Source: a virus
Strand: one strand, 5' to 3'
Virus record (IMG/VR): IMGVR_UViG_3300021964_000016
Length of the DNA stretch: 64,000 nt
The notes beneath the pieces are model-generated. The model ran no database searches. It saw nothing but the letters and a program-made list of their open reading frames with translations, and had not been told where the DNA came from. Below are positions 9,615 through 48,517 of this stretch, one piece after another (positions within the stretch are counted from its first letter, which is position 1; each line of letters begins with the position of its first letter). The position numbers and the translations under genes were made by a program.

Positions 9615-11984
9615 TTAATCAGATATCTCTACCAAATCGTCCTCAGAAAGTATTCTTCTATTAAAGTACGTTCCAACTTTCATTTGAAAAGAAGTTTTAA
9701 AACTTGTGTCTACAGTTGGCATAACCACAATTAACTGCTGAGACAATATTCCGTCTGGGCGAATAAAGTCGTAATCTAAACTTAATTGATCGTAGAAGAA
9801 AGTATCTCTAATATACAAAGAGAGGTCAAAGGTGGCACTGTAGTCAATCTTGCCCCTTGAGTTGAACAGCGTGTATACAACAGCGCGTCCTTCATACTTC
9901 AATTGATTGATTGTTGGTCTGCCTGTGATCAAAGAAATTTGCGTCGAACCGCCATCTTCTTTTCTATAGGGTTCTCTCCAATAACGAGCAGTTGGTTGTT
10001 CTTTTGATGCATCATATGCTTCCCTGATACCGCTGGCAGGGTGATAATATCCTTCTGTAACTTGTAGTCTATGTCGACCAAACTCATTAGAGGAGGCAAT
10101 ACCTTCCATCAACCAAGCATGCAAGTACCACTGCCTTGCTAAGTTTTGTCTTTGATCAAACAGCGGCACAAAATCTAGTGAAGTTTTAGATCCAGGTGCA
10201 CCGAGGAATTTAGAAACAGTACAAGACTTAGATAGTTTTGTGTTGCTTGTTATTGGTGTGCTGTTTTTATCTGGATTATAAACTGGATCTGCCAAAATAG
10301 TTCTGACAGAAGAAACTTTGTTCTTTGGCAAAAACGTTTTAGAAGACCTTTCTACAGGGTTCCCGAGTAGACTGTATCCAAACTTTGCTGTAGGTTGTGC
10401 CTGTCCTGTCCTCTTAATTTCGTATGGGGCAGGAGGAAGCGGCAACGTATAGTGAGGGTGTATTCTGTTTTCGTCAAGAAGAGATTGAATACACTTGGCG
10501 CCATCGGTCTGTTTCTCTGGCGAAGTTTGTGCATCGTTAGCACCGTCCATCGTACGCAATTTAGAGCGAATCTCTTGGGTGGTTGGTGTCCAGTTAAAGT
10601 AATACGTGTACGAATCAATCTTCGCAATCTTATCTTCGATCGTGTTATCTTCGTCAACAAGTACCTTACGAACAGCAAACGGAGACGTCTTCAAGTAAAC
10701 GTCGTTCCAATCTCCTGTTGTTGAATAGTTTGGCGAAACGTTAGCACCCACCCTGCCTTCTATTTGCGGTCCAGCAGTGTTTGTGTCGTCGACGTTCCAT
10801 CCCCAGTCAAATTGATAGGTTGGGTCAGATGTTAATGTAGGCGAACCATCGTGTGCTGTTGTGCTTGTCGGATCATATCCAACTGCATCAACAGTGCCAG
10901 GTACATTACCACCAGGGTCTGCCACTGGTGAACTTACTGCCTGAAATGCATGGAAACAATACTTAGAAGTATCTGCCTTAGTAGCATAACTCGATCGATG
11001 TGCCCAGTGAGACTCGTCTGCGTACAGAGCAAACTTCGCTGTCCACGCCTCCAGAGCGCGTCCTACAAGGTTTCCTTGGAATACCGTAGCACTACCATTA
11101 TCGTCGTCTGGACCTGTGTAGAGAGACCCTACGAAGTGCATATTAGACCCACCGATCTTTCCTGTTGGGGCAACAACCGTTACATCTTTCGAAGAGAGCA
11201 CTGCCTGATTTCCTGACGCAACATGCCAACCGTCCTCTGCTGTCGCCCTCACGTTTCTACCAGCATTGACGATATGATCTTTTTTCGCGATAACTCTAAT
11301 GTCTTTTTTACCAACAATCTTTACATCGCTAGAATAAAAATCAAACGTGTCTCCCCAAACTTTTGTGTCCTTGTTACCACGAACAATTGTGCTATGGGTA
11401 TCACCAGTTTCAGTAATTAACGAACCATGAGTTGACTGATTGTAATTTGCGCCGACGTTCACGTTCATAGTCCCGCCAACTTCAACATTATAGTTTCCAT
11501 TAACAACAAGGTTTAGGTCTCCGTCATAGGTTAAATTTCCTTGACCAGAAACTACTAATTCGTGATCAGCACCAGCAACCTGTACTTGGTGCGACCTAGA
11601 GACCACAACAACAGAACCGTCCTGTTTAAGTTCTACTCCAGCACCTGTGTGGTGCTTCAACAGTATTCTTTCGTTCCCTGGAGTATCGTCTATTTCAAAC
11701 GAATGTCCAGAGGGAGTGGTGTTTGCTTGATTAAATGGGTAGATTGAAGGCGAAGCATAAGGAACGTCAAAGTTTACGCCAAGAGTAGATCCACCTAAAC
11801 GAAGGTCGTTTATTTGAATACCACGTGCTGAAGCACTTACACTAGGAGAGAACCAGTTAGAACGGAGAGGGTATTCGCCTGTTGGATCTGACATACCGTC
11901 TCGAGAGATACCAACGCTGAACTCTCTTTCAACACCGTTTTCTTTTGCCAGACGGTCTTCAATTTTGTTATTTGTTGTTGTCAA
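9615..11984 (-). CDS. gp5 C-terminal part (beta-helix spike) with a degenerate peptidase M15A-like C-terminal domain
   Basis: YPFNQANTTPSGHSFEIDDTPGNERILLKHHTG and VxGx repeats; C-terminus LQVTEGYY...YDQLSLDY; TTG start overlaps the upstream TGA. Confidence 0.75.
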   Translation of the reverse strand: MTTTNNKIEDRLAKENGVEREFSVGISRDGMSDPTGEYPLRSNWFSPSVSASARGIQINDLRLGGSTLGVNFDVPYASPSIYPFNQANTTPSGHSFEIDDTPGNERILLKHHTGAGVELKQDGSVVVVSRSHQVQVAGADHELVVSGQGNLTYDGDLNLVVNGNYNVEVGGTMNVNVGANYNQSTHGSLITETGDTHSTIVRGNKDTKVWGDTFDFYSSDVKIVGKKDIRVIAKKDHIVNAGRNVRATAEDGWHVASGNQAVLSSKDVTVVAPTGKIGGSNMHFVGSLYTGPDDDNGSATVFQGNLVGRALEAWTAKFALYADESHWAHRSSYATKADTSKYCFHAFQAVSSPVADPGGNVPGTVDAVGYDPTSTTAHDGSPTLTSDPTYQFDWGWNVDDTNTAGPQIEGRVGANVSPNYSTTGDWNDVYLKTSPFAVRKVLVDEDNTIEDKIAKIDSYTYYFNWTPTTQEIRSKLRTMDGANDAQTSPEKQTDGAKCIQSLLDENRIHPHYTLPLPPAPYEIKRTGQAQPTAKFGYSLLGNPVERSSKTFLPKNKVSSVRTILADPVYNPDKNSTPITSNTKLSKSCTVSKFLGAPGSKTSLDFVPLFDQRQNLARQWYLHAWLMEGIASSNEFGRHRLQVTEGYYHPASGIREAYDASKEQPTARYWREPYRKEDGGSTQISLITGRPTINQLKYEGRAVVYTLFNSRGKIDYSATFDLSLYIRDTFFYDQLSLDYDFIRPDGILSQQLIVVMPTVDTSFKTSFQMKVGTYFNRRILSEDDLVEISD

Positions 11985-13477
11985 AACTTCTTCTCCATAA
12001 CGTCTGGATCTTTTTCAAGTGCATCTATCTCGGAATTAGTTTCTTCAAGTTTTGCTAAAATATCATCTGGTGTAAACCCTGCTTGATTAATTGGGTCAGT
12101 GTACAAACTTAATTTATTAAAGTTGTTGAAAACGTAAGTCCGAACATCAAACCCTGGATCTTCTTGTGTTGGGTCTATGTCCATATGCCCGAGTGCCTGT
12201 CCTCCTGGGAACTGACTAAAAAATACTCTCATAATTTGATAAAAAGTATTATACTGAGATCTACTAATCGATCTTGTAGAAGCAACTTCGTAAAGGTTTG
12301 ATGCTCCAGTAGAAACGTTCAACCCCCCAACGAAACAGATTCCTATTGAGTGTTCGTCATGTCCATTTAGGTCGCAATGCTTTCCTGCTTTATTCAAAGG
12401 GACGCCCCTCTCAACAGAACCGTCTCTACGAATAATAAGATGATAAGCATTATCACCTGCTCCCGTTAGTTCTGTGAGTTGAGAAGCACTAAGGTTGGCG
12501 TTTGTGAAAGTCTCTGACCAATGCACTATGACTTCGCTTATGCCTCTCGTGATGCTAGACATCTCTGCCTCAAGTTCTTCTATAGAAGAAATAAAAGAAC
12601 CTTCTGCGTCTATAGTATCTACGTCAATAATATATGGGTTTGGTCCTGGCAAATCGGTCGTGTTGTCAATAGTTCCCGCGATGGTGCCCCTAGTTGACGA
12701 CATCAAAGACTGCAAAGAACCAGTACTAGCATTAGTCCCGCTTGCTGCTTTCACATAAGAAGCAGCAAAGGTATCTCTCTGAGAAGGACTTAGGTCGTCA
12801 AGGTCTACATTACCCAAAGGATCTGCCACAGAGGTCACAAGGTCTTTGATTTCTGGATCTGTGAGAAGGGGGGCAAAAGAAGGAGGAAGATCAGTGAACA
12901 GATTTATTTCGCCAGAACCTTTTAAAAAAGTGGCAACAACTCTTGGTGATATATTAGATAATTCTAACGGAGAGAGCAAGGTGCCCAAAGAAGCATTAAT
13001 AGACGCTACAACATCTCCTGTAATTTGTTCTGCTATTTGAGCAAGAGATCCACTGATCCCCAAAGAACCCAAAACTGCGCCAACCCCTCCTGTGACTTCA
13101 AGTAATCTTCTTTCATAGTAATTAATAAAACTGTTTAATGCGTCTGCAATAACCGTATCAAGGTTTAATATTCCTCCTCCAATTTGCCCAAATACAGAAT
13201 TGGACTTCAATACATCGATCAAGGTGTTTTTGTTCATAGAAGGGGTGAAGGGAAGCATCAAGTCGGCAACTGTATCATAAATTTCTCCAGGAATATTCCC
13301 AGGAATATTTGTATCGATACCTCGCAAAGCATCAGAAATAATCTTTACAATTTGTGTTCTGACAATATCGGGCATCGACCCACCAGAAAATATACCAAGA
13401 CTGCTCGACAATCCTGAGGCATTTCTTATACCTTCAGCAATGTACTGGTTGTAAGTTGATTGATTAAGAATTGCCAT
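11981..13477 (-). CDS. Tail-associated protein with C-terminal N-acetylmuramoyl-L-alanine amidase (Amidase_2, T7 lysozyme/AmpD-like)
   Basis: VIVHWS, YHLIIRRDGSVERG, SIGICFVGG and LGHMDID...EDPGFDV. Confidence 0.85.
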   Translation of the reverse strand: MAILNQSTYNQYIAEGIRNASGLSSSLGIFSGGSMPDIVRTQIVKIISDALRGIDTNIPGNIPGEIYDTVADLMLPFTPSMNKNTLIDVLKSNSVFGQIGGGILNLDTVIADALNSFINYYERRLLEVTGGVGAVLGSLGISGSLAQIAEQITGDVVASINASLGTLLSPLELSNISPRVVATFLKGSGEINLFTDLPPSFAPLLTDPEIKDLVTSVADPLGNVDLDDLSPSQRDTFAASYVKAASGTNASTGSLQSLMSSTRGTIAGTIDNTTDLPGPNPYIIDVDTIDAEGSFISSIEELEAEMSSITRGISEVIVHWSETFTNANLSASQLTELTGAGDNAYHLIIRRDGSVERGVPLNKAGKHCDLNGHDEHSIGICFVGGLNVSTGASNLYEVASTRSISRSQYNTFYQIMRVFFSQFPGGQALGHMDIDPTQEDPGFDVRTYVFNNFNKLSLYTDPINQAGFTPDDILAKLEETNSEIDALEKDPDVMEKKF

Positions 13478-14390
13478 CAGATGGAGTCTCGTTCAGCGGA
13501 GAAATATAGTCAAGAATTGCTCTACGGTTTTCTTGAGAGATAGTTAGTCCGTTATTTGCTTGAGGCGGATATGTGTTATTCAAAGTAACAGGTCCAGGAA
13601 GAGTTCCGTCAAACATTCCGTTGTCTCCGTCAAGGGATTGTAATAAGGTGTTAATACTCTGTGGTTGGCCAGAATTAATGATAATAAATGGATAGTTGTT
13701 TCTTTCGTTGTCTAATCCGTAGATAGTTGCATCGTTAAACTCAGATGGAGTTGTTGAGGTAGCAGCTGCTTCAGCGTTTCTTTTAGTAGAAGTTTCTTTA
13801 TAAGAACTTGTCTTGGTTGGAGAAGAACCTGACCTTATTATCGTATCATACCACCAATGCCCAGATTCGTCGCCATCTCCAGTAGGAGTATCGCTAGAAA
13901 AGTTCCACTTATATCCTTGGATAACATCACTTCCGTCTTGAGTTTCGTTGAACGTTCCCTTTTGAGAAGTTGTAGCAACCAAAAAATGTTGTCCTGCGAT
14001 AGTGCTTGCATCTGCTTCTCTTGATGTTGGCGCAAATTCGTCTCCGACAATAGCATTTCCTGGATTATCTTCGGTGGAAGGAATTTCCATCTCACCATGA
14101 ATATAAAGAATACCAGTACCATAAGTTATATGGTCTATGTCTGGAACTTCTTCAGTAACTGCTTGCCAACCATCTTGTCTTTGGGCAACGTTTGGGTCGC
14201 TCGGGTCAGCAGTGTTTAGACTACCAAATCTCTCAAAATCTCGGTTAGAATATCTGCCAATATTTGACATATTGGCGATGAACCATTCTCGAATTCTAGC
14301 AGCATGACCTTCTCTGAGGTCGTCCAATCCGACGCGATCATAGAGGTTGCGAATGTAACTTGAAATTTCAGATAAGTTTAAGAGTGCCAT
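13464..14390 (-). CDS. Hypothetical protein within the split gp5 locus, probably virion
   Basis: 308 aa, translationally coupled on both sides. Confidence 0.6.
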   Translation of the reverse strand: MALLNLSEISSYIRNLYDRVGLDDLREGHAARIREWFIANMSNIGRYSNRDFERFGSLNTADPSDPNVAQRQDGWQAVTEEVPDIDHITYGTGILYIHGEMEIPSTEDNPGNAIVGDEFAPTSREADASTIAGQHFLVATTSQKGTFNETQDGSDVIQGYKWNFSSDTPTGDGDESGHWWYDTIIRSGSSPTKTSSYKETSTKRNAEAAATSTTPSEFNDATIYGLDNERNNYPFIIINSGQPQSINTLLQSLDGDNGMFDGTLPGPVTLNNTYPPQANNGLTISQENRRAILDYISPLNETPSDGNS

Positions 14391-15304
14391 TACCTTGCCC
14401 CAAGTCCTTTATATATTTCTTCTGCTTTAGTTTCTGCATCTGATTGGCTGCAAGTTGTAAGAGGGTGCACATAATACTTAACTAAAGCAGCAACTTGGCC
14501 ATTGCCCTTGGTTTCTATTCCGTCTATCTTTTCACCAGTTAGGTTTCCCTTTATCTCTCGTGCGCGCGATATTTTTGTAAGAGCAGTAGACCTTGTGCTT
14601 CTCATTTCGTGCATAACATAAATTAATTGACCTTCAAAATCGTTTATACTTCGAGAGGGAGCAAGTCTGTTTGTGTATGCAACAAACCTAGAATAACGAG
14701 GCGTATTTAGTGGCCAACCAGCAAGTCCAAAACCATTAGAATTTTGCGCGGGGTCCAGTCCGCTTATTTCTTGTAAGACCCCAGTGATAGAACTTGCCTG
14801 CTTTGCGTTTAATCCATTGTCAATAAAAAACCTAGCAACGTCAGAAGCAGGAAGCGGTCCAGTATCATCAGGTTGTCTTGGATTATAGAAAACTGGGTCT
14901 TGTAGTTGTGCATTAGATTGTGTGAAAATGTAAGTAAAAGGATTGGTAGACGGGTCTTGCCTGTTGGCTGCCTGAACTGCTGATGGGTACTCTACTCTGG
15001 GGAGAGAACCCATAACCAGAGGCAGTTGTGAATGTGCGCCATCTAAAAACATACCAAAAACTAAAGTTCCTGGAAGTATTTGACAATGAGTCCCTAACCC
15101 AGACCCGCCATAAGTATCGCTTGGGGTCATAACTTGCGCCCAAGGCAAATCGTTCTGAGGGATATCGTTTACGTCTCTTGAATGAATACCGTGCACGCGA
15201 ATTTTAATTCTTCCCTCATATCCATATGGAGGAGAATTGTCTATCACGGTGGCGACAAACCAACGAAAATCGTCGCCATAGTATTCTGTGTTTAAAGGTC
15301 TCAT
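14390..15304 (-). CDS. gp5: gp5 N-terminal OB-fold plus phage tail lysozyme-like (Phage_lysozyme2) domain
   Basis: FRWFVATV...GRIKIRVHGIH...LPWAQV...VFGMFLDG...PLVMGS, followed by NGLNAKQASSITGVLQEISGLDP...FGLAGW...QLIYVMHE. Confidence 0.85.
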   Translation of the reverse strand: MRPLNTEYYGDDFRWFVATVIDNSPPYGYEGRIKIRVHGIHSRDVNDIPQNDLPWAQVMTPSDTYGGSGLGTHCQILPGTLVFGMFLDGAHSQLPLVMGSLPRVEYPSAVQAANRQDPSTNPFTYIFTQSNAQLQDPVFYNPRQPDDTGPLPASDVARFFIDNGLNAKQASSITGVLQEISGLDPAQNSNGFGLAGWPLNTPRYSRFVAYTNRLAPSRSINDFEGQLIYVMHEMRSTRSTALTKISRAREIKGNLTGEKIDGIETKGNGQVAALVKYYVHPLTTCSQSDAETKAEEIYKGLGAR

Positions 15305-16683
15305 ACTAGTTTCGGTGGTCTGGTTGCAATCTTAGAAACGGAAGCAACGATTTCGTGAACCGTGCCTCTGAAAATATTTCTACACTTGTGTATTAAAAAT
15401 AACCCAGAAAGGTCTTCATTGTATACTGTTCCGTCGTCTGTATCTACGTCTGAGTTAAGGAAGTCAATATAAACCGTATCCCCGACACTGACGCCAGAAT
15501 TTCCATTACCTAGTTGCGCAAAAAACGATATGCCAGGAATTGTTATGTCAATCATATTCTTGTTAAACATACTTCTGACAGAGGGTGCTCTAAGTTTATT
15601 TAATGCTTCAGAAGCATCTTGAACATCGTGGTAACTATTAAAAGAACCATATGTTCCAAAAGAAGTTATAGTGTTAAAATATCTTGCGTCCAACTGATCT
15701 AGAGTTCTAGTATTGTTACCGTATGTCAATTCTTGTTTTTCGTCAAAAACGTTTTGTTCGGCACCAAAAGGAATAGAACGCATAGTTGATAACCTTTCTA
15801 ATTGGTCTGTTATCGCATAATGACGATCAAATTCTTGTCCCGTATAGGTATCTACAGTTTGCAATCTTGCACCAACAGCACCTTCGTGAACCATTTTCAA
15901 TGTGTCTTGTATGTTTTCCACTCTCAACTTTTTCACGGTAACTGCTTGCTCCGCTAAGGGAAGAGCAGCAACTTTTTGTGCTCGTGCAGCAGAATATATT
16001 AAAGGTTTTTCTGGATTAAAAGCAGGAGCATTCAACATGAACTCGAGACTACCAACCCTTAAAGTGTCTCTGCCTTCTACCTGATCATAGATTGTTTGCC
16101 AGATATAGAAAGGCGACCCAATCATAGTAGTTGCTCTTTGCATTAACCATTCAGCAGATTCTAAGGGACTAATATAAGGTGTAAGAACTTTTACAGGTTT
16201 CTGCATAGAAGTCCAGGCACCCATGTAAGAGATGTCAACATCAACGTCCAAGTGATTTTTTAAGATCCCCATAGCAATATTTTCAAGTTTTCCTGTGTAT
16301 GCTCTGGAAATTTTGATATTTGCATCTCTGTAAGCATGGGGAGAAATACAATTCAAATGGTAGATCTCAGACCTATCACCAACTTTGTTGGTTTGTATGA
16401 TAGAGACTATATTCATAATCATAGTGAATCTTAAATCACCAACTGATTGATCTGCTGCTTCAACAGTAAGACGTATTTGTTCTGACCCGCGAATCTTAAC
16501 TTCATCGAATAACCCTATGTCGTCCATACACACAATCTGTGCGGTAACATACGGTCTTTCTATATCTTCAAAAAAAGAAAGTTCTCCGATATAGTTTGTG
16601 ATGTTATATTCATCTTGCAACCTTTCGGCGAAGATAGTTGCCTCACTGATCTTAAATTCTTGAGAATTTACATTCTGCGTCAT
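15301..16683 (-). CDS. Probable baseplate hub protein (gp27-like)
   Basis: Located between gp53 and gp5; ELSFFEDI; C-terminal IPG...VGD...LSGLFLIHKCRNIF. Confidence 0.6.
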   Translation of the reverse strand: MTQNVNSQEFKISEATIFAERLQDEYNITNYIGELSFFEDIERPYVTAQIVCMDDIGLFDEVKIRGSEQIRLTVEAADQSVGDLRFTMIMNIVSIIQTNKVGDRSEIYHLNCISPHAYRDANIKISRAYTGKLENIAMGILKNHLDVDVDISYMGAWTSMQKPVKVLTPYISPLESAEWLMQRATTMIGSPFYIWQTIYDQVEGRDTLRVGSLEFMLNAPAFNPEKPLIYSAARAQKVAALPLAEQAVTVKKLRVENIQDTLKMVHEGAVGARLQTVDTYTGQEFDRHYAITDQLERLSTMRSIPFGAEQNVFDEKQELTYGNNTRTLDQLDARYFNTITSFGTYGSFNSYHDVQDASEALNKLRAPSVRSMFNKNMIDITIPGISFFAQLGNGNSGVSVGDTVYIDFLNSDVDTDDGTVYNEDLSGLFLIHKCRNIFRGTVHEIVASVSKIATRPPKLV

Positions 16684-18354: not shown

Positions 18355-18861
18355 ATGGCAAACAATTATAAAGGAAAATATAAAGTCAAGAACATTTCCA
18401 AATACAAAGGAAATACACAAGAGGTGGTCTATAGGAGTTCTTGGGAACTTGCTGTAATGAAGCATCTAGACAGTAACCCAGAAGTCTCTAAATGGAATAG
18501 CGAAGACTTTGTGGTGCGGTATTACTATGACGTGGATAAAAAATACCACAACTATCACGTGGATTTTTGGATAAAATACAAAAACGGGAAGGTGTTATTG
18601 GTTGAAGTAAAACCAAAGAAACAGACTTTGCCACCTGCAACAAAGAATCCAAGGTCTAAAAAATCGTTGAACGAAGCATTTGCTTGGATAAAGAACTGCA
18701 ACAAATGGGAAGCAGCAGGAAAAATTGCCAAAGACAATGGATACTCTTTTCAGGTTTGGACTGAAGAAGAACTCAAAAAGATGGGTATTCTAAAGAAGCA
18801 ACCAGGAAAACTAAAGAAGTTAAAACCGCTAGCACCTTATAAAAAGAAAAAGAAACCTTAG
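18355..18861 (+). CDS. gp4: Head completion protein gp4 (TnsA-like nuclease fold)
   Basis: YKGKYK..N..KYKG, VYRSSWE, WNSE, YHVDF, LVEVKPKKQT, KWEAA and WTE. Confidence 0.95.
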   Translation: MANNYKGKYKVKNISKYKGNTQEVVYRSSWELAVMKHLDSNPEVSKWNSEDFVVRYYYDVDKKYHNYHVDFWIKYKNGKVLLVEVKPKKQTLPPATKNPRSKKSLNEAFAWIKNCNKWEAAGKIAKDNGYSFQVWTEEELKKMGILKKQPGKLKKLKPLAPYKKKKKP

Positions 18862-20816
18862 ATTGCTCTTCCTCTAAATGCTGCTCTACGGTCTGTTCTG
18901 TCACTTTTATCAGTAGCAGATGGCATTGGTCCAGCGTTAATGGTTTGATTGCTGACGGTTGTGTTAGTGTTCGGTGCATTAATAGCGACTGGAGCACTTG
19001 GTTTAGATTCTTCTGCCTTTGCAGCATCCAGTTTTGACTGTTCAGAAGACATAGTTTCAGAAAGAGAAACACGGTCTTGTCCAGGTTCTACTACTGGTGC
19101 AACTGAAACACTACCCATAGCAGCATTTGCTTCTACGCGCTTCGCCTTAATTGCGTTTGATGCTGCTGCGCCTTCATCGGTCATTAAGTAATCAAACGCT
19201 TCCATATCATCCATGCCTTCTAGTTTGGCATCTAGATCTGCTTGCATTTTATCTGCTTCTGCTCTCAATGCTTTGCTTTTTTCGGTATCAACTTTCTTGT
19301 CAGCAAAGGTGGTCGTTGAACCACCGCCAGATTCCGATACTTTGGTAGTTACTTTTGTTGTTACATTACCTGCGGAATCACCTTTCAACTTCATAGGTTT
19401 TTCATCATAGAAATCATCGCTTCCTTCTATTGCAGCATCAAACCCAATGTCGTCCTCTAGCGCAGCATCGAATTTATCTGGACCTTTACTCTCTCTAAAT
19501 TTATCCAGTTCAGCGCGTGCTGTTTTCAATTCCGCACGAATTTCTGCTTGTCTTTTATCCAAATCAGCAAACGGATAATCAGGGTCTCTTGAATCAGCAG
19601 GTACTCTCATACCCTTTGCCAACATTTCCTGTATAATAGTTTCTTTTTGTGCACTTATATCACGTTGTTCTGCTTGTAACGCACCTACTTTTTCGCTAAG
19701 TTCTTGTTCTTTATAGAAATCATCTGCTATTTTTTTGACTTTTACAGGTTTAGGTTCTTCTGTTGTCGTCGGTTTTACTTTTCCTGACGCAAAATCTTTC
19801 TTAAATTGTTCTTGCTGTTGCTTGACGACATCAGCAGAAGACGTTTTAACTGGAGAAGGCACGTCACCAATAGTTCTTCCACGCTTACCAGTCTCGGGAT
19901 CAACTTCAGGTACGCCACTTCCTTTAAGGTCGTCAACTGCTGCTTGTCCTCTTTCACTAAGTTTGGCACCTTCTTTTCCGGAAGGAATCTCCATTCCGCG
20001 TTTAGTAGAGGTTTCCTCTTCTTCTTCACTTCCAAGTCCAAAAAACCCCAGAAACCCTTCCTTAACTGCGTTGATCTTGTCTGAGATATAATTTTTTACA
20101 CTAATGAGAAAATCTCTAATACTGTCTGTCAATTCGTCAACAAAATCAGTAACAGAAAAATCTGAAAGTGCGTTTTCAATAGTCTCTAGACCCAACACTC
20201 CAGCAATTTTCTCCACCACCCAGAGCATAGCGTCTATCGGAAGGGTTATGAGTTTAAGAACTCCGTCAATAAAACCCATCATACCTGCTATAATTTTATC
20301 GAACAGGGAACCTTCCTGTGCTTTGAAATCTTCGACAAAATTCATGACCCCCGAGACAAGAGCTGTAATCGCACCAGCAACAGCGATCATGGGCAAGGTG
20401 ATTGCACCAAACAAAGTGGTAATAACTGCTGTGACTTTACCGACGGTCTTTAGAACGTTTCCAATAGAATCCATAACGTTCTTTTTCATTTCGCCAACAG
20501 GGTCCGATTTGAACCCTTCCATGAAGGCACCTTTTAGTGTAAACGGTTCTCTCTCGCTATCCTGTTGTTGCCCTACTTCCTCTTCCCTTTTTTTCTGTTT
20601 TGCTTGGGTCTTTTCAAAATCAAGTAATGCGTCAAACCCCTGCATAACAGCAGCAGGAACAGTTTGAACAAAACTGTTCATAACAGAAACAAGTTCTTGT
20701 ATACCAGAGTTAAGAGTAGAAATATTATCGTTAATTTCAAAATTTGCTTCAAGGTTGAGATCAACATTCTGGTTGAGTTCTTGTAACTCTGTTACTACCG
20801 CTTCTAACGTTGCCAT
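18858..20816 (-). CDS. Probable tail length tape-measure protein (gp29-like)
   Basis: 652 aa, helical/coiled-coil with a central hydrophobic Gly/Ala/Ile stretch; directly downstream of gp26/gp51. Confidence 0.55.
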   Translation of the reverse strand: MATLEAVVTELQELNQNVDLNLEANFEINDNISTLNSGIQELVSVMNSFVQTVPAAVMQGFDALLDFEKTQAKQKKREEEVGQQQDSEREPFTLKGAFMEGFKSDPVGEMKKNVMDSIGNVLKTVGKVTAVITTLFGAITLPMIAVAGAITALVSGVMNFVEDFKAQEGSLFDKIIAGMMGFIDGVLKLITLPIDAMLWVVEKIAGVLGLETIENALSDFSVTDFVDELTDSIRDFLISVKNYISDKINAVKEGFLGFFGLGSEEEEETSTKRGMEIPSGKEGAKLSERGQAAVDDLKGSGVPEVDPETGKRGRTIGDVPSPVKTSSADVVKQQQEQFKKDFASGKVKPTTTEEPKPVKVKKIADDFYKEQELSEKVGALQAEQRDISAQKETIIQEMLAKGMRVPADSRDPDYPFADLDKRQAEIRAELKTARAELDKFRESKGPDKFDAALEDDIGFDAAIEGSDDFYDEKPMKLKGDSAGNVTTKVTTKVSESGGGSTTTFADKKVDTEKSKALRAEADKMQADLDAKLEGMDDMEAFDYLMTDEGAAASNAIKAKRVEANAAMGSVSVAPVVEPGQDRVSLSETMSSEQSKLDAAKAEESKPSAPVAINAPNTNTTVSNQTINAGPMPSATDKSDRTDRRAAFRGRAI

Positions 20817-21004
20817 TATCGCCCCATCGCCTTTCTTTGCTCGATTTTTTCGTTCTCTTCCCTAATATGCTCTATAAGAAGAGCAACATAAATCGCCCGT
20901 TCCCATGGGAGCATGTTTTCTAGTTCTGTTAACGAGTAATTGTGGTGCTGCATCAAGGCAAAATTAGTTTTATAATGATTGACCAAATTGTCATGAGACA
21001 GCAC
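20816..21004 (-). CDS. gp51: Baseplate hub assembly catalyst gp51, probably made as a -1 frameshift fusion to gp26
   Basis: YKTNFALMQHHNYSLTELENMLPWERAIYVALL; no properly spaced SD before the GTG. Confidence 0.85.
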   Translation of the reverse strand: MLSHDNLVNHYKTNFALMQHHNYSLTELENMLPWERAIYVALLIEHIREENEKIEQRKAMGR

Positions 21005-21006
21005 TA

Positions 21007-21726
21007 CTAAAAAAAATCGGATAACCCCTTTAGTTGTAATTCGTTTTCAGTACCGCATTTTTTACAATTAAAAACCGCATCATGTTTCAACGCAGGCATA
21101 CCTTCCAAAAAAGAAGTCAATTGCTTCAATTGCGTTGCAGTCATAGACTGTATAAATTCCATCAACTCTTCTTCGCTTTGATCTCTTGCGTCAATTCTCT
21201 CGTTTGGTGTAAGAACTGCTACTATAGATTTACAAATCATTTTTAAAGCAGAACCCATGTCTTTTTCTGCGTTTTCTACATCCCCGTTGAGTAAAGTAGA
21301 ATATGTTGGATATCTCATTTCAACAGAAATACCATCAGTAATTTTTATTATATTCTTACTTTTTGGGACTTCTACGTTCAACGTATCGAGATCAATATGG
21401 TATTCGTTTGCCTCTTTACACTCTTGATTTTTGCAACGAATCATAATAGTTGAGGTTTCCCCAACCGACTTTGCTCTCAACTGAGTGAACATGTATTCAA
21501 TGTCAAACGTTGCCAAATCAGAAACATTAATATTAGCACTCGGGTCTAGGCAAGAAGAGATAGTATCGCTCATTGCCTGTAAACACATTGAAGTGTCTTT
21601 TGACTCAAATGCTTGAAGAAGAACCTTTTCTTCTTTTACCAAATATGGTCTATACTTTACTCTTTCTCCAGTTGAAGGAATAGTCATATTAAAGTTTAGC
21701 GTTTCATTGACACGTGGTAATGCCAT
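21007..21726 (-). CDS. gp26: Baseplate hub subunit/chaperone gp26
   Basis: IPSTGERVKYRPYLVKEEKVLL, FDIEYMFTQLRAKSVGE, two Cys pairs and terminal LKGLSDFF. Confidence 0.92.
   Translation of the reverse strand: MALPRVNETLNFNMTIPSTGERVKYRPYLVKEEKVLLQAFESKDTSMCLQAMSDTISSCLDPSANINVSDLATFDIEYMFTQLRAKSVGETSTIMIRCKNQECKEANEYHIDLDTLNVEVPKSKNIIKITDGISVEMRYPTYSTLLNGDVENAEKDMGSALKMICKSIVAVLTPNERIDARDQSEEELMEFIQSMTATQLKQLTSFLEGMPALKHDAVFNCKKCGTENELQLKGLSDFF
21009..21030 (-). other. Putative programmed -1 frameshift signal (SD-like AAGGGG plus T-TTT-TTT slippery run)
   Basis: Minus strand AAG GGG TTA TCC GAT TTT TTT TAG; the -1 frame reads TTT TTT TTA GTA GTG CTG into gp51. Confidence 0.65.
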
Positions 21727-21741
21727 AATAATCTCCGATCA

Positions 21742-22311
21742 TCATTTAATCAAATAATTTGAAAATACAAAAGAAACAGTAAGTTCTAGTGCTGCTCCTT
21801 GTGCTTGGTTATTTAGTTCGACTTCTGTTATGGTAGTTGGATATGCTTTTACTAGTTCAACTTCATAAACCTTTTCTCCGTCAGGGACGTTTAAATTCCC
21901 TTTGTCTAACTGAATTACAGTTACGCTTTTCGCATAGTCTGCGTGAAATCCAGCAGAATATGGGGGTGAAGGAGAAACTATACATTCCGACCATTCTTGA
22001 AAATATTTTCTGGCACTATAGTCGTTTGTGAGATAAAATGTCAAGGAGACGTCAGAAGAAGAATACCCATTGACAACCTTTATCGGTTCCATTCCAATTT
22101 GCCTATCAAGGAGAGAGAAATTTTTGCCTGGTATTCTTGCAGCAGTACAAAGAAGGTTCATTTCTCTTGGGGGAATGGGGTCGGTGGCGATTCCCCCTCC
22201 AGGTTTAGGTGTTCTGGAAAGAGATGGCAATATAACAGAGAACCTATTCTGTGAGGCGATTCCTCTTTGGTCGTTGATCAACGAGCGGAGAGTGTCGGTT
22301 TTAAATGTCAT
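21742..22311 (-). CDS. Tail tube-like / tail tube initiator protein (gp19/gp54 family)
   Basis: NRFSV, LLCTAARIPGK, VSLTFY, RKYFQEW, YAKSVTVIQLD, AYPTTI and LTVSFVF. Confidence 0.75.
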   Translation of the reverse strand: MTFKTDTLRSLINDQRGIASQNRFSVILPSLSRTPKPGGGIATDPIPPREMNLLCTAARIPGKNFSLLDRQIGMEPIKVVNGYSSSDVSLTFYLTNDYSARKYFQEWSECIVSPSPPYSAGFHADYAKSVTVIQLDKGNLNVPDGEKVYEVELVKAYPTTITEVELNNQAQGAALELTVSFVFSNYLIK

Positions 22312-23176: not shown

Positions 23177-23596
23177 TTATCCGATTGGAATAACTTTTGG
23201 ACGCTTCTCTTCTGGGATTTCTACTTTCAGGTCAATGACCAGTAATCCATCCACGAAGTCTGCTCCGTCAACAACGACGTGTTCTGAGAGTCTAAAGGTG
23301 CGCGTGAATTTCTTTGCAGAAATACCACGATGGAGATACTCACGATCACTTTCTCCTTCCCCAGTTTTACCTCCAGAGATTACCAAAATGCCGTCCTTGA
23401 CTTCAACAGTCAGTTCGTCCTTTGAGTAACCTGCAAGAGCAAGTTCTACTGAGAAATTCTTTTCATCTTTTTTCACAACGTTGTGCGGAGGATAGAGTTT
23501 GTTATCTGCCATTTCTGACAGACGCTCGATCTCCGACCATACGTGGTCAAATCCGATGAAATGTGAACGTGGAAAAGAAAATGCTTTAGATACCAT
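23177..23596 (-). CDS. hsp20: Small heat shock protein Hsp20 (IbpA-like)
   Basis: IGFD, YPPHNV, ELALAGYSKDEL, YLHRGISAKKFTRTFRL, GLLVIDL and IPEEKRPKVIPI. Confidence 0.95.
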   Translation of the reverse strand: MVSKAFSFPRSHFIGFDHVWSEIERLSEMADNKLYPPHNVVKKDEKNFSVELALAGYSKDELTVEVKDGILVISGGKTGEGESDREYLHRGISAKKFTRTFRLSEHVVVDGADFVDGLLVIDLKVEIPEEKRPKVIPIG

Positions 23597-33213: not shown

Positions 33214-34767
33214 TTATGATGTAAAAACCTTTACCCCATATTTTCGTTCAAACTGAGCAGCGTGTTCAACAGTATTAACCATCGGCATGCGTCGAATATT
33301 CAAAGAAGTGTTTAACAACATAGGCACACCAGTTCTTTCATAATAGCATTCAATTATTTTCCGAAAAACCGATTTCGAATCTTTTGGCACTAATTGTACG
33401 CGACCAGTACCATCGACATGAGTAACAGAAGAATACTGGTGTTTTGCCTTAGCAGCATATTGCATCCATCGATTCATTGGTCCTTCGAAATAATCTGCTG
33501 CATGTTCTTCTAAAATAGCAGGAGCGAAAGGTCGATATTTCTGCCTACGTTTTACCATGTTAACTGTATCTTTAACATCGAATCTAACATCTGCAATAAG
33601 TGATCGGTTTCCATATGCACGATAACTAAACTCTGCTGGACCGTTTGCGACTCCGCAATATCGCTCTTTGAGGAGATGATCAACAACCATTTCTGGGTCT
33701 AAGTCTCCTTCGATACAGTGACCAAGATAAGGGTGTTCCCAATTAATTCTATCCTTGCCAGTATCTCTCATATAAGAAAAAGCAGCTGCACCGAGACTAG
33801 CACCTCCATCTCCAGGATTCAAATCTACCCACATATCGTCAAATAGTTTGCTCACCTCATTATTTGTGACAATATTCTGTGCAACTCCGCCGGAATAGCA
33901 AAGTTTGCTTCCGTACTTTCTTGCCTTTTTCATAAACTCTAAAATAACGAGGGTTGTACATGCTTGAAGAGATGCAGCTGCATCCTCTACAGATTTACAT
34001 TCTTTCATAAGCATCTGTACGATTTTTCGCAAGTACATTAACTTTAAGTCATAGAAATGTTTCCAGTTCACGTAACTTCCTTCTTCCCTTTTTTGTATTG
34101 CTTCTTCAATCAACCATTCGGGAATAGAACTAAACATCTCATAAGTTTTTTCAGTATGAGTAGGTTCGCCATAACTCGACAATCCCATGATCACATATTC
34201 ATCTTCGTTTGCGGTCAAACCGAGTCCGCAACCTTCTGTAAAGGCAGCATAAAGATATCCGATAGATTTAGGGAATGTTATCTCTTCAATAATATTAAAA
34301 TTATGATCAAGAATTGCACCAGAACGATGCTCCCCAATACCATCAATTGTTACAATAACGCAATCTTCTTTATCGAAAGATTTTGGTCTTGTGGCAAAAG
34401 CAGCATATGCGTGCGAAATATGGTGCCCAGTAGGTTTTGCGTTTATTTTTTGAGTATACATCGAAGGATGTATGTTCTGTATAGGGCAATCCAATTTGAA
34501 AATATCAGGAAACTTTTTCCGAGTTAATGCAACTTCACCTCCACGAAGTTCTTCTCTCGCCTCCCAATCGTCATTCATTGTAACGATTAGGTTTTCTCCT
34601 TTATTCGGGTGATACAATAAGTCCCACAAACCAGAGGGGATTCTAGAATCGTGCTTCACTTGAGTGAATCTTTCTGTCTGACTCGCAAAGACAATATTGC
34701 CTTGGTCATCAATCAACGTCATGCCAGCATCGTGGAGTTGTGCTCCACTAATACCCAAATATTTCAT
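33214..34767 (-). CDS. Carbamoyltransferase (NodU/CmcH family)
   Basis: HDAG, ERFTQVKH, HHISHA, DGIGE, GGVAQN, PGDGG, GNRSLIAD, RPFAP, HVDGTGRVQ and LLNTSLN. Confidence 0.93.
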   Translation of the reverse strand: MKYLGISGAQLHDAGMTLIDDQGNIVFASQTERFTQVKHDSRIPSGLWDLLYHPNKGENLIVTMNDDWEAREELRGGEVALTRKKFPDIFKLDCPIQNIHPSMYTQKINAKPTGHHISHAYAAFATRPKSFDKEDCVIVTIDGIGEHRSGAILDHNFNIIEEITFPKSIGYLYAAFTEGCGLGLTANEDEYVIMGLSSYGEPTHTEKTYEMFSSIPEWLIEEAIQKREEGSYVNWKHFYDLKLMYLRKIVQMLMKECKSVEDAAASLQACTTLVILEFMKKARKYGSKLCYSGGVAQNIVTNNEVSKLFDDMWVDLNPGDGGASLGAAAFSYMRDTGKDRINWEHPYLGHCIEGDLDPEMVVDHLLKERYCGVANGPAEFSYRAYGNRSLIADVRFDVKDTVNMVKRRQKYRPFAPAILEEHAADYFEGPMNRWMQYAAKAKHQYSSVTHVDGTGRVQLVPKDSKSVFRKIIECYYERTGVPMLLNTSLNIRRMPMVNTVEHAAQFERKYGVKVFTS

Positions 34768-38805: not shown

Positions 38806-39783
38806 TTATGCCGCTCCCCAAACCTCTTTCCAGTCTCCAGTTAATGCCCCGCGAGCATAATCTGTAGCACGGTTCTCAAAAAAGTTTGTGTGTGTTGGCG
38901 CGTTAATCATTTCTTCGACCCAAAGTAAAGGGTTCTTCTTCACTTTAAAGATACCCTTCATGCCCAAAGAGATAAGGCGACGATCTGCGATGTACCGAAT
39001 ATATGCCTTAACTTCTTCTTGAGTAAGTCCTTCCATTGGACCCATGGCAAACGCCAGATCGATAAACTTGTCCTCGAGTTCTACCATCTTTTCTGCAATA
39101 GAGTAGATCGTTGATTTCAACTGATCGTTCCAAATCTCGATATTCTCTTCTATGTAGGTTCGGAATAGTTTGATCATAGACTCGGCGTGCATAGTCTCGT
39201 CGACGATAGACCAAGTTACAATCTGTCCCATGCCCTTCATCTTACCATGACGCGGAAAGTTGAGTAGCATGATGAAAGAACTGAACAGTTGCATACCTTC
39301 GGTGAAGGCAGAGAACGCGGCGATATTAGCAGCAACAGATTCTTTGGTGCCGTTATTTGCGGAAAGGTTTAGAAAATACTCGTGCTTCTCTCGCATTGCC
39401 TCGTACTCGAGGAACTCGTTGTATGTAGACTCAGGCATACCCAAGGTCTCTATCAAATGCGAATAAGCAGCAACGTGGAGTGCTTCTCTCGCGGCGAATC
39501 CCATAAGCATCATACGAACTTCTGGTTGTGGGAAATAAGGAAGATAGTTCGAAACATATCCACCCGCAACATCGATATCACCCTGAGTAAAAAATCGAAA
39601 AATATTGGTCAAAAATGCTCGCTCTTCAATAGTGAGTTTTCTTTGCCAATCCTTTACATCTTCTGCCATTGGAACTTCCGTGTGTAACCAATGAGACTGC
39701 TCATGTTTCAACCAAGCATCATATGCCCATGGATAGTTGAAAGGTTTGAAGTGGTCCCTGTTGTCCGTAATTGATAGTTGCAT
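38806..39783 (-). CDS. nrdB: Ribonucleotide reductase class Ia beta subunit
   Basis: FFTQGD, REALH..AYS, EGMQLFSSF, DETMH and NFFENRATDY. Confidence 0.97.
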   Translation of the reverse strand: MQLSITDNRDHFKPFNYPWAYDAWLKHEQSHWLHTEVPMAEDVKDWQRKLTIEERAFLTNIFRFFTQGDIDVAGGYVSNYLPYFPQPEVRMMLMGFAAREALHVAAYSHLIETLGMPESTYNEFLEYEAMREKHEYFLNLSANNGTKESVAANIAAFSAFTEGMQLFSSFIMLLNFPRHGKMKGMGQIVTWSIVDETMHAESMIKLFRTYIEENIEIWNDQLKSTIYSIAEKMVELEDKFIDLAFAMGPMEGLTQEEVKAYIRYIADRRLISLGMKGIFKVKKNPLLWVEEMINAPTHTNFFENRATDYARGALTGDWKEVWGAA

Positions 39784-39786
39784 GCA

Positions 39787-40341
39787 TTATCCTTTGTTTT
39801 CTGTTTTGTTGAACCAAGTTACTAGTACGATTCTATGACCATCATAAACTTTGCTCACTCCATGAGTCAAGTTTGGACCATAAACTAAACTTTCACCATC
39901 ATCAACTTTCACCACATCCATTATAATTTGCTGACCATAGGGGGGAGCATCTTGTTCGCGAGAATGCCGCGCCACCTGATTTCCCATTGGTCTGCTCTTT
40001 AATTTATACTCTGCTCTAACTAAAGATTCTCCACCAACCAACTCCTTTGTTTTTAGTAAAGTAACAATTGTCAAATCCGAGTTGTTGTCTTCGTGCATTC
40101 TTGTAAAAGAATCTTTTTCATATTTTAAAAAATATGCCCCCTTATCTCCTGGCATCTTTGAATACTTTTTCAAAGTATTATAGAAACCGTATTGTAGTGG
40201 GGTTGGAACATCTCTTCTTTCAACATCAAACAAGTTGTAGTTTTGATGCCAAAAAACAGGAGAGAGACTTTCGTATATTTCTAGTGCTTCTTTTATTTCA
40301 TCACCGGAAAGAATTCTTTCCTTAATATAACCACTCACCAA
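39787..40341 (-). CDS. 2OG-Fe(II) oxygenase between nrdA and nrdB
   Basis: YFLKY...HED...LTIVTLL...GGE...HGVSKVYDGHRIVLVTWF. Confidence 0.82.
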   Translation of the reverse strand: MVSGYIKERILSGDEIKEALEIYESLSPVFWHQNYNLFDVERRDVPTPLQYGFYNTLKKYSKMPGDKGAYFLKYEKDSFTRMHEDNNSDLTIVTLLKTKELVGGESLVRAEYKLKSRPMGNQVARHSREQDAPPYGQQIIMDVVKVDDGESLVYGPNLTHGVSKVYDGHRIVLVTWFNKTENKG

Positions 40342-42144
40342 TTATCCCTCGCAAGCGATACACTCTTCATTATTAACGATAGCAACCATATCAATTTCTT
40401 TGATTGCTTCTCTTTCGATCTTCTTAGAAACGCGATCTGCCTTTCCAAGTTTTTCAGAGCGACAATAGTACAAAGTCTTCAACCCTTTCTTCCACGCCAA
40501 GAAATGGACAGCATGCAAGTAAACGATATTCGCGTCTGGTCTAAAGAACAGATTCAAAGACTGCGCTTGATCGATAAACTGTTGCCGATCAGCAGCGTGC
40601 TCAATAACCCAACGTTGATCAATTTCCATAGAGGTCTTGAATACGTCTTTTTCTTCTTGGGTCAGAAACCGAAGATGCTGAGCAGAACCATCGTTAGCAA
40701 TAATGCTTGACCAAATTTCATCATAGTCTTGCTTTGTTTCGCCCGACTGAATTTTTGCTTTTATGAGTTGATCCAAATATCGGTTTTTATTTAAATGTGA
40801 ACCAGACAATGTATCCTGACGGTATGCGTTTGCTCGCCAAGGTTCTATAGAAGGAGAAGTATTGCCCATAATGATAGAGGAACTAGCATTAGGCGCAACA
40901 GCCATAACATGAGAAAATCTCTTTCCAGTTCCTTCTGCGTCTGGTGCTTCTCCTCGTTCTTTACCGATCTCGAGGTTTGCTTCATCGAGTTTCCTCCGGA
41001 TGAGAGAAAATATCCTGTTGTTAGTAACCTTTGCCATGGCACAATCCCATGGTAGGTTTTTCTTTTGTAGATAAGCATGAAACCCAAGGGCACCGATACC
41101 GATCGAACGCTCTCGCATTGCGGAGAACTTAGCACGAGCAACTGTATCTGGCGCGTTGTCAATAAAAAATTGCAACACGTTGTCCAACATCTCTGCCATG
41201 TCTTTCAAAAACAATTCGTTCTTGCTCCAAGCATCATAGTGCTCGAGGTTTACTGAAGAAAGACAACAAACAGCAGTTCGTTCTTCATTAGTTGGCAGGA
41301 TAATTTCTGAACAAAGATTAGACTGATGAATCTTTAATCCCAGTTCTTTTTGAAAAGCAGGCATCATACGATTGCTGGTATCGATGAAGTGCAGGTATGG
41401 TTCGCCTGTCTCCATGCGTAGTTCCAGAATCTTCTGCCACAGAGACTTTGCTGAAATAGTATCGCGGATTTCGCCTGAGTGCGGATCAATTAGATTCCAA
41501 CCATCATCTGCGTCGGCGTCTTGCATACAACGTTCAATCAACTCCATGAACCGATCGCTGATATTGATACCATGATGCAAGTTTAAACAACGGCGATTTT
41601 GGTCGCCTGTTGGTTTGCGCATTTCAAGAAACTCAATCACGTCTGGGTGAGAGATATCGAGGTATGCTGCATATGAACCACGCCGAGTCTTACCCTGACG
41701 ATAAGCAAGGGAAGAAGCGTCATAGGTTTTAAGGTGCGGGATTACACCAGTGGACTTATCGTCAGAAGAACGAATACCAAAACCGATCCCTACACCACCA
41801 CCCATCATAGACAACCAGTTAGTCTCGGATAGGTTGCTCACCAATCCTTCAGCTGTATCCTCGATGAAGTTGAGGAAGCAAGAGATTGGCATACCCTTTC
41901 CCGTGCGCCCATACGCGAGGATAGGGGTAGAGTAGGATAACCAGTGTTTAGAAGAGTATTCGTAGAGACGTTGAGCGTGCTCAGGGTTTGAAGAGAATTT
42001 TTGAGAGACAAAAGCGAATCGATGTTGAGGCGACTCTTCGTCGTCTCGCATATATGATTCTTTAAGTCTTTGGATTCCTAATTTGTCGAAGAGTTCATCA
42101 CGAGAGAGATCGATTTCTATACCAAGATATTGCTGCTTTGCCAC
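40342..42144 (-). CDS. nrdA: Ribonucleotide reductase class Ia alpha subunit (no ATP cone)
   Basis: STP, ISCF, GGGVG, SNLCSEI, VCCLSS, APNASSS, KTLYY and terminal CIACEG. Confidence 0.97.
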   Translation of the reverse strand: MAKQQYLGIEIDLSRDELFDKLGIQRLKESYMRDDEESPQHRFAFVSQKFSSNPEHAQRLYEYSSKHWLSYSTPILAYGRTGKGMPISCFLNFIEDTAEGLVSNLSETNWLSMMGGGVGIGFGIRSSDDKSTGVIPHLKTYDASSLAYRQGKTRRGSYAAYLDISHPDVIEFLEMRKPTGDQNRRCLNLHHGINISDRFMELIERCMQDADADDGWNLIDPHSGEIRDTISAKSLWQKILELRMETGEPYLHFIDTSNRMMPAFQKELGLKIHQSNLCSEIILPTNEERTAVCCLSSVNLEHYDAWSKNELFLKDMAEMLDNVLQFFIDNAPDTVARAKFSAMRERSIGIGALGFHAYLQKKNLPWDCAMAKVTNNRIFSLIRRKLDEANLEIGKERGEAPDAEGTGKRFSHVMAVAPNASSSIIMGNTSPSIEPWRANAYRQDTLSGSHLNKNRYLDQLIKAKIQSGETKQDYDEIWSSIIANDGSAQHLRFLTQEEKDVFKTSMEIDQRWVIEHAADRQQFIDQAQSLNLFFRPDANIVYLHAVHFLAWKKGLKTLYYCRSEKLGKADRVSKKIEREAIKEIDMVAIVNNEECIACEG

Positions 42145-47020: not shown

Positions 47021-47253
47021 GCGAGATCCTTATCGTGGTTTAGACCACCTTTCTTTTTCTTGACAATAAACGCATTGACGCGAGCATGACCCCACTGCTG
47101 TGGTGTAGTTCCAGGACGATGACCTCCCTTCCATGCAGCAACGCCACGATTGTAAACCTTACGCAAAGTTCCGACAGAAATACCTGACTTATCTGCTTTT
47201 TTTGCCAGAGAAGATCCAGCGTCCTCTTCTAAGTAGTTTTTAAACTTTAACAT
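47017..47253 (-). CDS. Small conserved basic protein (DUF5824-like), probable internal head protein
   Basis: MLKFKNYLEE; KSGISVGTLRKVYNRGVAAWKGGHRPGTTPQQWGHARVNAF. Confidence 0.75.
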   Translation of the reverse strand: MLKFKNYLEEDAGSSLAKKADKSGISVGTLRKVYNRGVAAWKGGHRPGTTPQQWGHARVNAFIVKKKKGGLNHDKDLA

Positions 47254-48517
47254 TGGTCGCCTTATTCTTTGCTCTTGTATCTTTGAGTCTTGCTCGGTCT
47301 AGCATACGGTCGTGTTTCAATTTATCCGTTTGCTTTTCCTTTTTGATCTTTTCTTTAGCAGCATCGAAAGCAGCAGTTTCTTCACCATACATCTTCTTAA
47401 ATGCCTTCGTATATTTTGAAGGTCTGGTCTTTGCTTTTGCGTCTCCAGGAGCAGGTTTGTATGCGCTTGGATTGCTATCGCTTTTCTTCGCGTTTTTCTG
47501 AAAGTGCGCGTCGCGACGGTTTTTCATCGCCTTAGAGAGACCCTTGTGATACTTTGCAGGTTGGGAACCCTTACGGTCTTTGATGTCAGAGTCTTGCCTA
47601 ACCTTAGTGTTGTCCTCTTCTGGCACACAGTTAGGGACCATTTTACCACCTTTAGGTTTCATACCCTTTTGGGTATAACCTTGCCAGCATGCTTCGTCAA
47701 GTTTTTCGACAGCATCTAACCATTTACGAACGCTTTTATTTTCGCCGAGTTGGACAACAACATAGTTACTACCCAAGTGAGTTATTACACCAACCTCTTC
47801 AGATTCTTTTACAACAACGGTGTCTCCTAGATCAAACAGTTCACCTTTGACAAACTTCTCGCGAGTTTCAGAAACCGTTTCAAGTTCTACATGACGTTTA
47901 AACTCTGATTCTTCTTTTATACCCATGCCAGAGCGAACGTCAAGGAACAACTTCTTAGAATCTTTATTATTCAAAGATGAACCAAGACCCTGAGAAAAAT
48001 TGGCAAAGTCGTTACTTGCGGCATACCCTCTAAGTTTAGAAGCAGACATACCCTCAACGCCTTCGGCATCTGGGTCGCGCTCGCCAGCAGAAGCAACGGA
48101 GATAGACTTGAAGTTGTAGAATCCGTGATTGCCCTTTTTACCGTTGTACTTGTTGAGAAGAGTTTCAAATTCTCTAACTCGGTCTGATCCAACAACCATT
48201 ACAATGCTTTTGAATCCCTGTTCAAACAGATACGAAGCAGCATCAAAGGCAGTTCGCACCTTCTTGTTTATCAACACGCTGCGAGCATGACGCGGAAACA
48301 TTTTCCTCACATGCTTTACTTTTGCTGTATAGTTTAGAGGATTCTTTTTAGCATCTTGAGATTGAGACAAAAACACATAGTATGGGTTCTTGCCCGACTT
48401 CTTGGAAAGATTGTCTAAAAGTTTTTCATGACCAACGGTTGGGGGGTTCATTCTCCCAAACGTGAAATACGCAACCTTGTCTTCTTCGACTAGATAATTT
48501 TTGAAAGAATTAATCAT
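47240..48517 (-). CDS. HIGH-superfamily nucleotidyltransferase (cytidyltransferase/NMNAT-like) with basic C-terminal modules
   Basis: FTFGRMNPPTVGHEKL, VVGSDR and MSASKLR; N-terminus MINSFKNYLVEE. Confidence 0.85.
   Translation of the reverse strand: MINSFKNYLVEEDKVAYFTFGRMNPPTVGHEKLLDNLSKKSGKNPYYVFLSQSQDAKKNPLNYTAKVKHVRKMFPRHARSVLINKKVRTAFDAASYLFEQGFKSIVMVVGSDRVREFETLLNKYNGKKGNHGFYNFKSISVASAGERDPDAEGVEGMSASKLRGYAASNDFANFSQGLGSSLNNKDSKKLFLDVRSGMGIKEESEFKRHVELETVSETREKFVKGELFDLGDTVVVKESEEVGVITHLGSNYVVVQLGENKSVRKWLDAVEKLDEACWQGYTQKGMKPKGGKMVPNCVPEEDNTKVRQDSDIKDRKGSQPAKYHKGLSKAMKNRRDAHFQKNAKKSDSNPSAYKPAPGDAKAKTRPSKYTKAFKKMYGEETAAFDAAKEKIKKEKQTDKLKHDRMLDRARLKDTRAKNKATNVKV

Follow-up and report, generated by a model that had tools for sequence, protein, structure and literature searches.

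A predicted programmed −1 frameshift joining gp26 and gp51 in a marine T4-like phage and its relatives

The 3' end of a gp26-like gene on a viral DNA stretch of 64,000 nucleotides (nt; IMG/VR record IMGVR_UViG_3300021964_000016, hereafter the window) very probably harbours a programmed −1 ribosomal frameshift site, at which a trans-frame gp26-gp51 protein would be made, judging from comparative sequence data. The slippery heptamer, its register, the adjacent stop codon and the lack of a start codon for gp51 all point to a −1 slippage of tRNA-Phe on the ribosome. Because the gp26-like protein shows a fold resembling tail assembly chaperones (TACs), and because of the gene order, it also seems fairly likely, by analogy, that the short and the extended protein act together as a tape-measure/hub chaperone of the G/GT type known from phage lambda. 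What we infer here is that the shift occurs, how efficient it is and which partners the products bind. The window represents a diverged, uncultured marine T4-like phage, the nearest isolates being cyanophages with 33-39% gp26 identity. All coordinates refer to the window, and the genes near the site are all located on the minus strand (Table 1).

The open reading frame (ORF) of the gp26-like gene ends with GAT TTT TTT TAG, containing eight consecutive T at 21016-21009. In the −1 frame the sequence reads TTT TTT TTA GTA GTG CTG TCT CAT and remains open for 66 codons up to a TAA at 20818-20816. The predicted fusion comprises 239 + 64 = 303 amino acids (aa), with the junction ...GLSDFFLVVLSHDNLVNHYK. 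The GTG codon used as gp51 start by ORF finders lies 5 nt past the gp26 stop and five codons into the extension. No Shine-Dalgarno (SD) sequence was detected at a usable distance from this GTG, the only SD-like sequence being an AAGGGG 20 nt upstream. An initial annotation of this DNA had described the T run, the −1 phase of gp51, the GTG without a well-spaced SD sequence, the AAGGGG 8 nt 5' of the T run and a fusion of about 303 aa (versus 239 aa for gp26) together with its junction peptide, and all of these details proved to be correct. Runs of seven T are depleted in the window (16 observed versus 55 ± 11 in shuffles), and the 8-T run is the longest homopolymer on its coding strand. Since, furthermore, motif, register and phase are kept in 94 of 94 distinct junctions, their combination exceeds chance expectation.

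A second in-frame T_TTT_TTT is present at 16570-16576 (minus strand), around codon 36 of a 460-aa tail protein ORF (15301-16683). There, the −1 frame meets a stop straight past the two Phe codons, and a shift would only truncate the protein. This site is probably without function.

The initial annotation had suggested aligning the gp26 3' ends of relatives. Relatives of gp26 were collected from 13 and subsequently 80 IMG/VR loci as well as from 11 GenBank phages of several families. This sample contains 94 distinct junctions, derived from IMG/VR loci, Kyanoviridae, Straboviridae, phage Cr30 and a Rhizobium phage. The gp26 identity to these relatives from several virus families spans 86% down to 22%. 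In all 94 junctions a T_TTT_TTN heptamer occurs in the same 0-frame X_XXY_YYZ register (57 T7, 30 T6C, 5 T6A and 2 T6G), and in all of them the gp51-like part follows in the −1 frame. The 0-frame stop is found directly after the heptamer in 53 junctions, one codon later in 39 and three codons later in 2. The codon in front of the two Phe codons varies (GAT, AGT, TCT, AAT, GCT, ACT, GGT) and ends with T in every junction, and TTT invariably serves as the first Phe codon; in the remainder of these genes T-ending codons account for about 75%.

Homology to the −1 peptide of the window, as detected by tblastn, begins at residue 1 (the FF dipeptide) in all relatives but one, where it begins at residue 6. 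No ATG, GTG or TTG is found for 10 or more codons past FF in 71 of the 94 junctions, and the position of the first such codon in the −1 ORF varies among relatives from 2 to 34 codons past FF. The GTG of the window is absent in relatives L001-L009, the closest of which (L001, 86% identity) exhibits ACG at this position. Many relatives carry a −1-frame stop just before the T run, which is TGA in the closest ones. The start-less stretch shows entropies of 0.97, 0.67 and 1.43 at the three codon positions. Because of this coding-type variation we regard it as protein-coding. It is even more conserved than gp26 itself (e.g. 87% versus 64%), and the residues FFLxxLSH..., which precede the first canonical start in the 71 junctions mentioned, are among the best conserved (alignment A3). 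A Stenotrophomonas phage (Ps15) shows T_TTT_TTC and an open −1 frame by eye, with no tblastn match to the −1 peptide.

Two relatives of the Ackermannviridae type, Vibrio phage D493 (L020, 3200-3440) and phage CBA120 (L023, 3230-3450), possess a gp51-like ORF in the −1 frame without a T run. The gp26 stop of phage D493 overlaps with an ATG (TAATG). Phage CBA120 has no canonical start near its gp51-like stretch, for which there is no annotation. Expression of the extension may follow another route in this lineage.

The −1 peptide matches PHROG 634, the 'baseplate hub assembly catalyst' family of gp51 (E 1.3e-28), as well as positions 231-278 of the 282 positions in PHROG 150, the gp26 family, which thus spans both parts. 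Precomputed protein annotations assign a newer Pfam accession, PF28602.1, to the gp51-like extension. Rare in-frame gp26-gp51 fusions exist in metagenome protein sets (P0004, P0005, P0010, P0011), each as a single sequence on a single contig; P0004 carries exactly the predicted junction (...DFFLSTLSH...). These fused proteins are probably either homopolymer errors or rare true fusions.

T4 gp26 (208 aa) covers the family PF12322 end to end (E 8.8e-64). The same applies for residues 1-201 of T4 gp51 (249 aa; E 3.9e-52), the residues 200-244 of which align with the −1 peptide of the window (BLASTP E 3e-6; hhalign against A3 E 4.8e-5). By these alignments T4 gp51 is a full-length gp26 paralog carrying the same C-terminal extension in frame. 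Since it consists of a gp26 body plus this extension, the fusion predicted for the window already has a natural equivalent. This refines the initial annotation, as T4 gp51 corresponds to the whole fusion and not to the small −1 ORF alone. Both T4 and the window would have a short and a long form sharing one PF12322 body, the long form carrying the same extension. They differ in that T4 uses two separate, divergently transcribed paralogous genes instead of one gene with a predicted frameshift, and in that genes 27 and 28 of T4 separate gene 51 from gene 29, which encodes the tape measure. The T4 gp26 gene ends with GAG TTC TTT GAG TTA CTA TAA, which is not slippery. A T4-type Klebsiella phage shows GAG TTC TTT at this site, too, together with a separately encoded gp51 and the same gp26/gp51 relation as in T4. 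The slip site is thus absent where the long form has a gene of its own. T4 gp26 and gp51 are listed as hub assembly chaperones, gp51 being required for assembly and absent from the particle (Leiman et al. 2010, PMC3004832).

In the mechanism we propose, the majority of ribosomes would read GAT TTT TTT and stop at TAG, releasing the 239-aa protein. A minority would slip back one base on U_UUU_UUU and continue in the −1 frame. This might take place by tandem re-pairing of two tRNA-Phe or, alternatively, by slippage in the P site with the stop codon positioned in the A site; the resulting peptide would be the same. In the frameshifted product of 303 aa, gp26 would be followed by a gp51-like tail of about 64 residues that is conserved and largely helical. 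The two products would then be counterparts of T4 gp26 and gp51, and would correspond to lambda gpG and gpGT as chaperones handling the tape measure encoded downstream, in a ratio set by the frameshift.

The shift rate is probably increased by the SD-like AAGGGG and by the stop codon next to the slip site. The pairing energy of AAGGGG with the anti-SD sequence is −7.8 kcal/mol in the window. A pairing of −4 kcal/mol or stronger occurs at this position in 85% of the junctions compared to a background of 6.4%, and the synonymous choice at this site leans to SD-forming codons (GGR 64% versus 38%, GAG 53% versus 28%). A hairpin can be folded 3' of the slip site of the window (Table 1), but it is probably not a conserved signal. 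A search of 20600-21300 against Rfam yielded only a chance-level match to DUF805 (E 0.88).

This arrangement shares with dnaX of E. coli an X_XXY_YYZ heptamer that is preceded, at a distance of about 8-10 nt, by an SD-like element. In dnaX, the heptamer A_AAA_AAG is combined with an SD-like stimulator on its 5' side and a hairpin on its 3' side, and the shift shortens the product. In contrast, the gp26 junctions show no conserved 3' hairpin and the shift would extend the product.

The 239-aa protein is a full-length member of PF12322, T4_baseplate (E 2.7e-55, 187.9 bits versus a gathering score of 24.5, covering positions 3-218 of the 219 in the profile), and also matches phrog_150 (E 5.6e-57). 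Its N-terminal domain (about residues 1-95) is TAC-like, and a zinc-ribbon-like part with four Cys is present as well. An AlphaFold2 (AF2) model of this protein (pLDDT 85.7) was aligned to 48,161 PDB representatives in a wide search with VIA-align. Ranks 1-3 of the 48,161 chains were 3fgx (Z 8.3), 3klu (Z 6.3) and 2ob9 (Z 6.2), the latter being named 'HK97 tail assembly chaperone', and all three matched residues 1-98. A second AF2 model, calculated for the natural in-frame homolog P0010 (34% identity, pLDDT 89.0), retrieved the same top three (3fgx Z 7.9, 2ob9 Z 7.6, 3klu Z 7.2), followed by a next match of 5.1. In this model the extension is helical and located beyond the zinc-ribbon-like C-terminal part. 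For both models the TAC matches cover 85-89 aligned residues with root mean square deviations of 3.5-5.0. All three structures are described as tail assembly chaperones (PMC9603447). According to the models, the N-terminal domain of gp26 has a tail-assembly-chaperone-like fold. A complex prediction for the extension (A3) and the upstream tube-like protein (A4) gave a score of 0.00, which weighs neither for nor against binding.

The order of the genes is tube-like gene, gp26, −1 extension and probable tape measure gene, and 73 related loci carry a homolog of the tube-like gene immediately in front of gp26. The 652-aa ORF following the extension is probably the tape measure. It matches phrog_4200 weakly (E 9e-4), all members of its nearest ESM Atlas cluster belong to PF25671, T4_Tape_measure (score 0.95), and it is placed where the annotated or tape-measure-like genes are located in relatives. 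No tblastn match to this protein was obtained among isolate phages. The extension stop overlaps the ATG of the tape measure gene as TAATG (20814-20818, minus strand), with GGGG 5 nt upstream. Frameshifted ribosomes might run straight into translation of the tape measure, linking the amounts of long form and tape measure.

The proposal of the initial annotation that gp26 and gp51 form a G/T chaperone pair thus gains support from TAC fold, gene order and T4 gp51 architecture. The gpG/gpGT system of lambda and a conserved −1 frameshift in TAC genes have reportedly been described by Levin in 1993 and by Xu, Hendrix and Duda in 2004, 2013 and 2014, with a review in PMC5009743. As in lambda, the chaperone gene is located between tube and tape measure genes, the −1 shift predicted close to its 3' end would result in a short and a C-terminally extended form, and the N-terminal domain shows the TAC fold. 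Unlike the lambda site, which is G_GGA_AAG, the sites of the window type are U_UUU_UUY, and the 0-frame stop is located 0-3 codons past the site. Moreover, gp26 has about double the length of gpG and contains an added zinc-ribbon-like region, and the T4 homologs of gp26/gp51 act in assembly of the baseplate hub. With E/E+E' of P2, a G/GT-type −1 frameshift upstream of the tape measure is known from a contractile-tailed phage, too (PMC5009743). The P2 system differs in its slip site and has no known sequence-level relation to the gp26 system. To our knowledge, the P2 E and E+E' proteins are not members of PF12322.

Several observations weigh against the frameshift or against the G/GT-like function. 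The FF dipeptide itself is conserved, so that protein constraint accounts for some of the T run, and phylogenetic independence is not given among the related loci. A conserved [K/E/R]-Gly is encoded where the SD-like motif lies, which leaves the synonymous bias as the one argument for a role at RNA level. No conserved 3' RNA structure was detected: RNAalifold gave no consensus for 90 sequences, and the pairs of the window hairpin are not kept. The TAC matches range at Z 6-8, where unrelated matches occur, too, and they were obtained with VIA-align only, a Foldseek search of the gp26 model against the PDB yielding no match at E ≤ 0.001. The tape measure assignment, in turn, draws on a weak profile match, a cluster neighbour and position. 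Finally, the GTG five codons into the extension could start a separate 62-aa product in the window.

This last point leads to the possibility that two separate proteins are formed, with gp26 stopping at TAG and a 62-aa gp51 initiated at the GTG or by termination-reinitiation, without any fusion. It would agree with GenBank, where gp26 and gp51 are treated as separate coding sequences (CDS), and with the ATG overlapping the gp26 stop in the Ackermannviridae-like phage D493, which has no T run. Independent initiation is disfavoured because the GTG is not conserved even at 86% identity, ACG being found in the closest relative, and it lacks a usable SD sequence. It is also difficult to reconcile with the 71 junctions without a canonical start for 10 or more codons, in which the residues concerned are nevertheless among the best conserved. 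The invariant wobble T before FF and the invariant −1 phase would remain unexplained, and T4 gp51 exemplifies an extension that works joined to a gp26-type body. We therefore consider two separate proteins quite improbable.

Alternatively, the RNA polymerase might add one U on the T run, so that gp26 and gp51 would be joined in frame in some of the mRNAs. Slippage at homopolymers is well known (reviewed in PMC5009743), and a single extra U would lead to an identical protein; seven or eight consecutive T are present in the window and in 57 of the 94 relatives. Productive slippage of bacterial RNA polymerase has been described for longer runs, mostly of 9 or more. Since 37 of the 94 junctions keep the arrangement with only six T (T6C, T6A, T6G), transcriptional slippage is unlikely as a general mechanism, and a ribosomal one agrees with the fixed position of the SD-like element and with the stop codon beside the site. 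We give this explanation, too, little chance, but both kinds of slippage could coexist on the 8-T run.

An error of sequencing or assembly in the homopolymer, hiding a single in-frame gp26-gp51 ORF or making the split artefactual, was rejected as next to impossible. Homopolymers are error-prone, and a few fused public proteins exist as mentioned above, but each of these is a single sequence, in most cases from a very short contig. The −1 phase is conserved throughout the 94 distinct junctions, which stem from independently assembled sequences and from finished isolate genomes and include T6C sites, which are not error-prone.

A −1 ribosomal frameshift on gp26 would have consequences for the view of T4-like tails. 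Frameshifting of the G-T type is regarded as conserved among long-tailed phages 'except T4' (Atkins et al. 2016, PMC5009743). We lean slightly towards a scenario in which the gp26/gp51 family is the long-missing TAC of T4-like phages and nearly all of these phages have the frameshift by descent from their ancestor, a gene duplication having taken its place in T4 and the phages closest to it. In this case the T4 lineage would be no functional exception: most T4-like phages would frameshift, and T4 would hard-wire the two forms as genes 26 and 51. The 'catalytic' gp51, a label 50 years old, might then be a GT-like adaptor loading the tape measure into the hub, and frameshift versus gene duplication would represent a natural experiment on how a fixed protein ratio is encoded. 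Full-text literature searches, which did not cover subscription journals, revealed no published gp26/gp51 frameshift.

The annotation of gp51 is affected as well. In GenBank, CDS named 'gp51' or 'baseplate hub assembly catalyst' from cyanophages and other T4-like phages (L014-L024) have differing internal starts and products of 34-58 aa. All of them lack the conserved first 10-30 residues, and the CDS is missing from some records. The start choices are arbitrary; this concerns hundreds of 'gp51' CDS in cyanophages and other T4-like phages.

Table 1. Features of the gp26-gp51 region and of the gp5-like module in the window
Feature	Position	Strand	Basis or remark
gp26-like gene (239 aa), short 'G-like' product	21007-21726	−	PF12322 and phrog_150 matches, AF2 model
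Slippery heptamer T_TTT_TTT	21010-21016	−	X_XXY_YYZ register; 0-frame codons GAT TTT TTT
0-frame TAG stop directly 3' of the heptamer	21007-21009	−	Possible pause or stimulator
−1 frame extension, gp51-like 'T-like' part of the predicted fusion	20819-21016	−	66 codons including two Phe
GTG used as gp51 start by ORF finders	21002-21004	−	Not conserved
SD-like AAGGGG, 8 nt 5' of the heptamer	21025-21030	−	Possible dnaX-type 5' stimulator
Hairpin 3' of the slip site, window-specific	20942-21007	−	dG −17.8 kcal/mol, z −1.8
Tail-tube-like gene (189 aa), directly upstream of gp26	21742-22311	−	phrog_45 'tail tube', E 9.2e-29
Probable tape measure protein (652 aa, gp29 analog)	18858-20816	−	phrog_4200, ESM Atlas neighbour, position
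gp5-like module: OB-fold N-terminal part	14390-15304	−	
gp5-like module: 308-aa ORF	within 9615-15304	−	Without assignment
gp5-like module: 498-aa protein	11981-13477	−	Amidase domain
gp5-like module: 789-aa protein	9615-11984	−	Matches gp5 C-terminal region

Further genes of the surroundings are gp2, located upstream, and gp48- and gp53-like genes downstream of the 652-aa ORF. The gp5-like module for cell puncturing is distributed among several ORFs (9615-15304, minus strand; Table 1). No tRNA genes were found in the window. Auxiliary genes are encoded on the minus strand at 23177-23596, 33214-34767, 38806-42144 and 47240-48517, comprising Hsp20, a Nol-like carbamoyltransferase, the small and large subunits of a class I ribonucleotide reductase and a cytidyltransferase.

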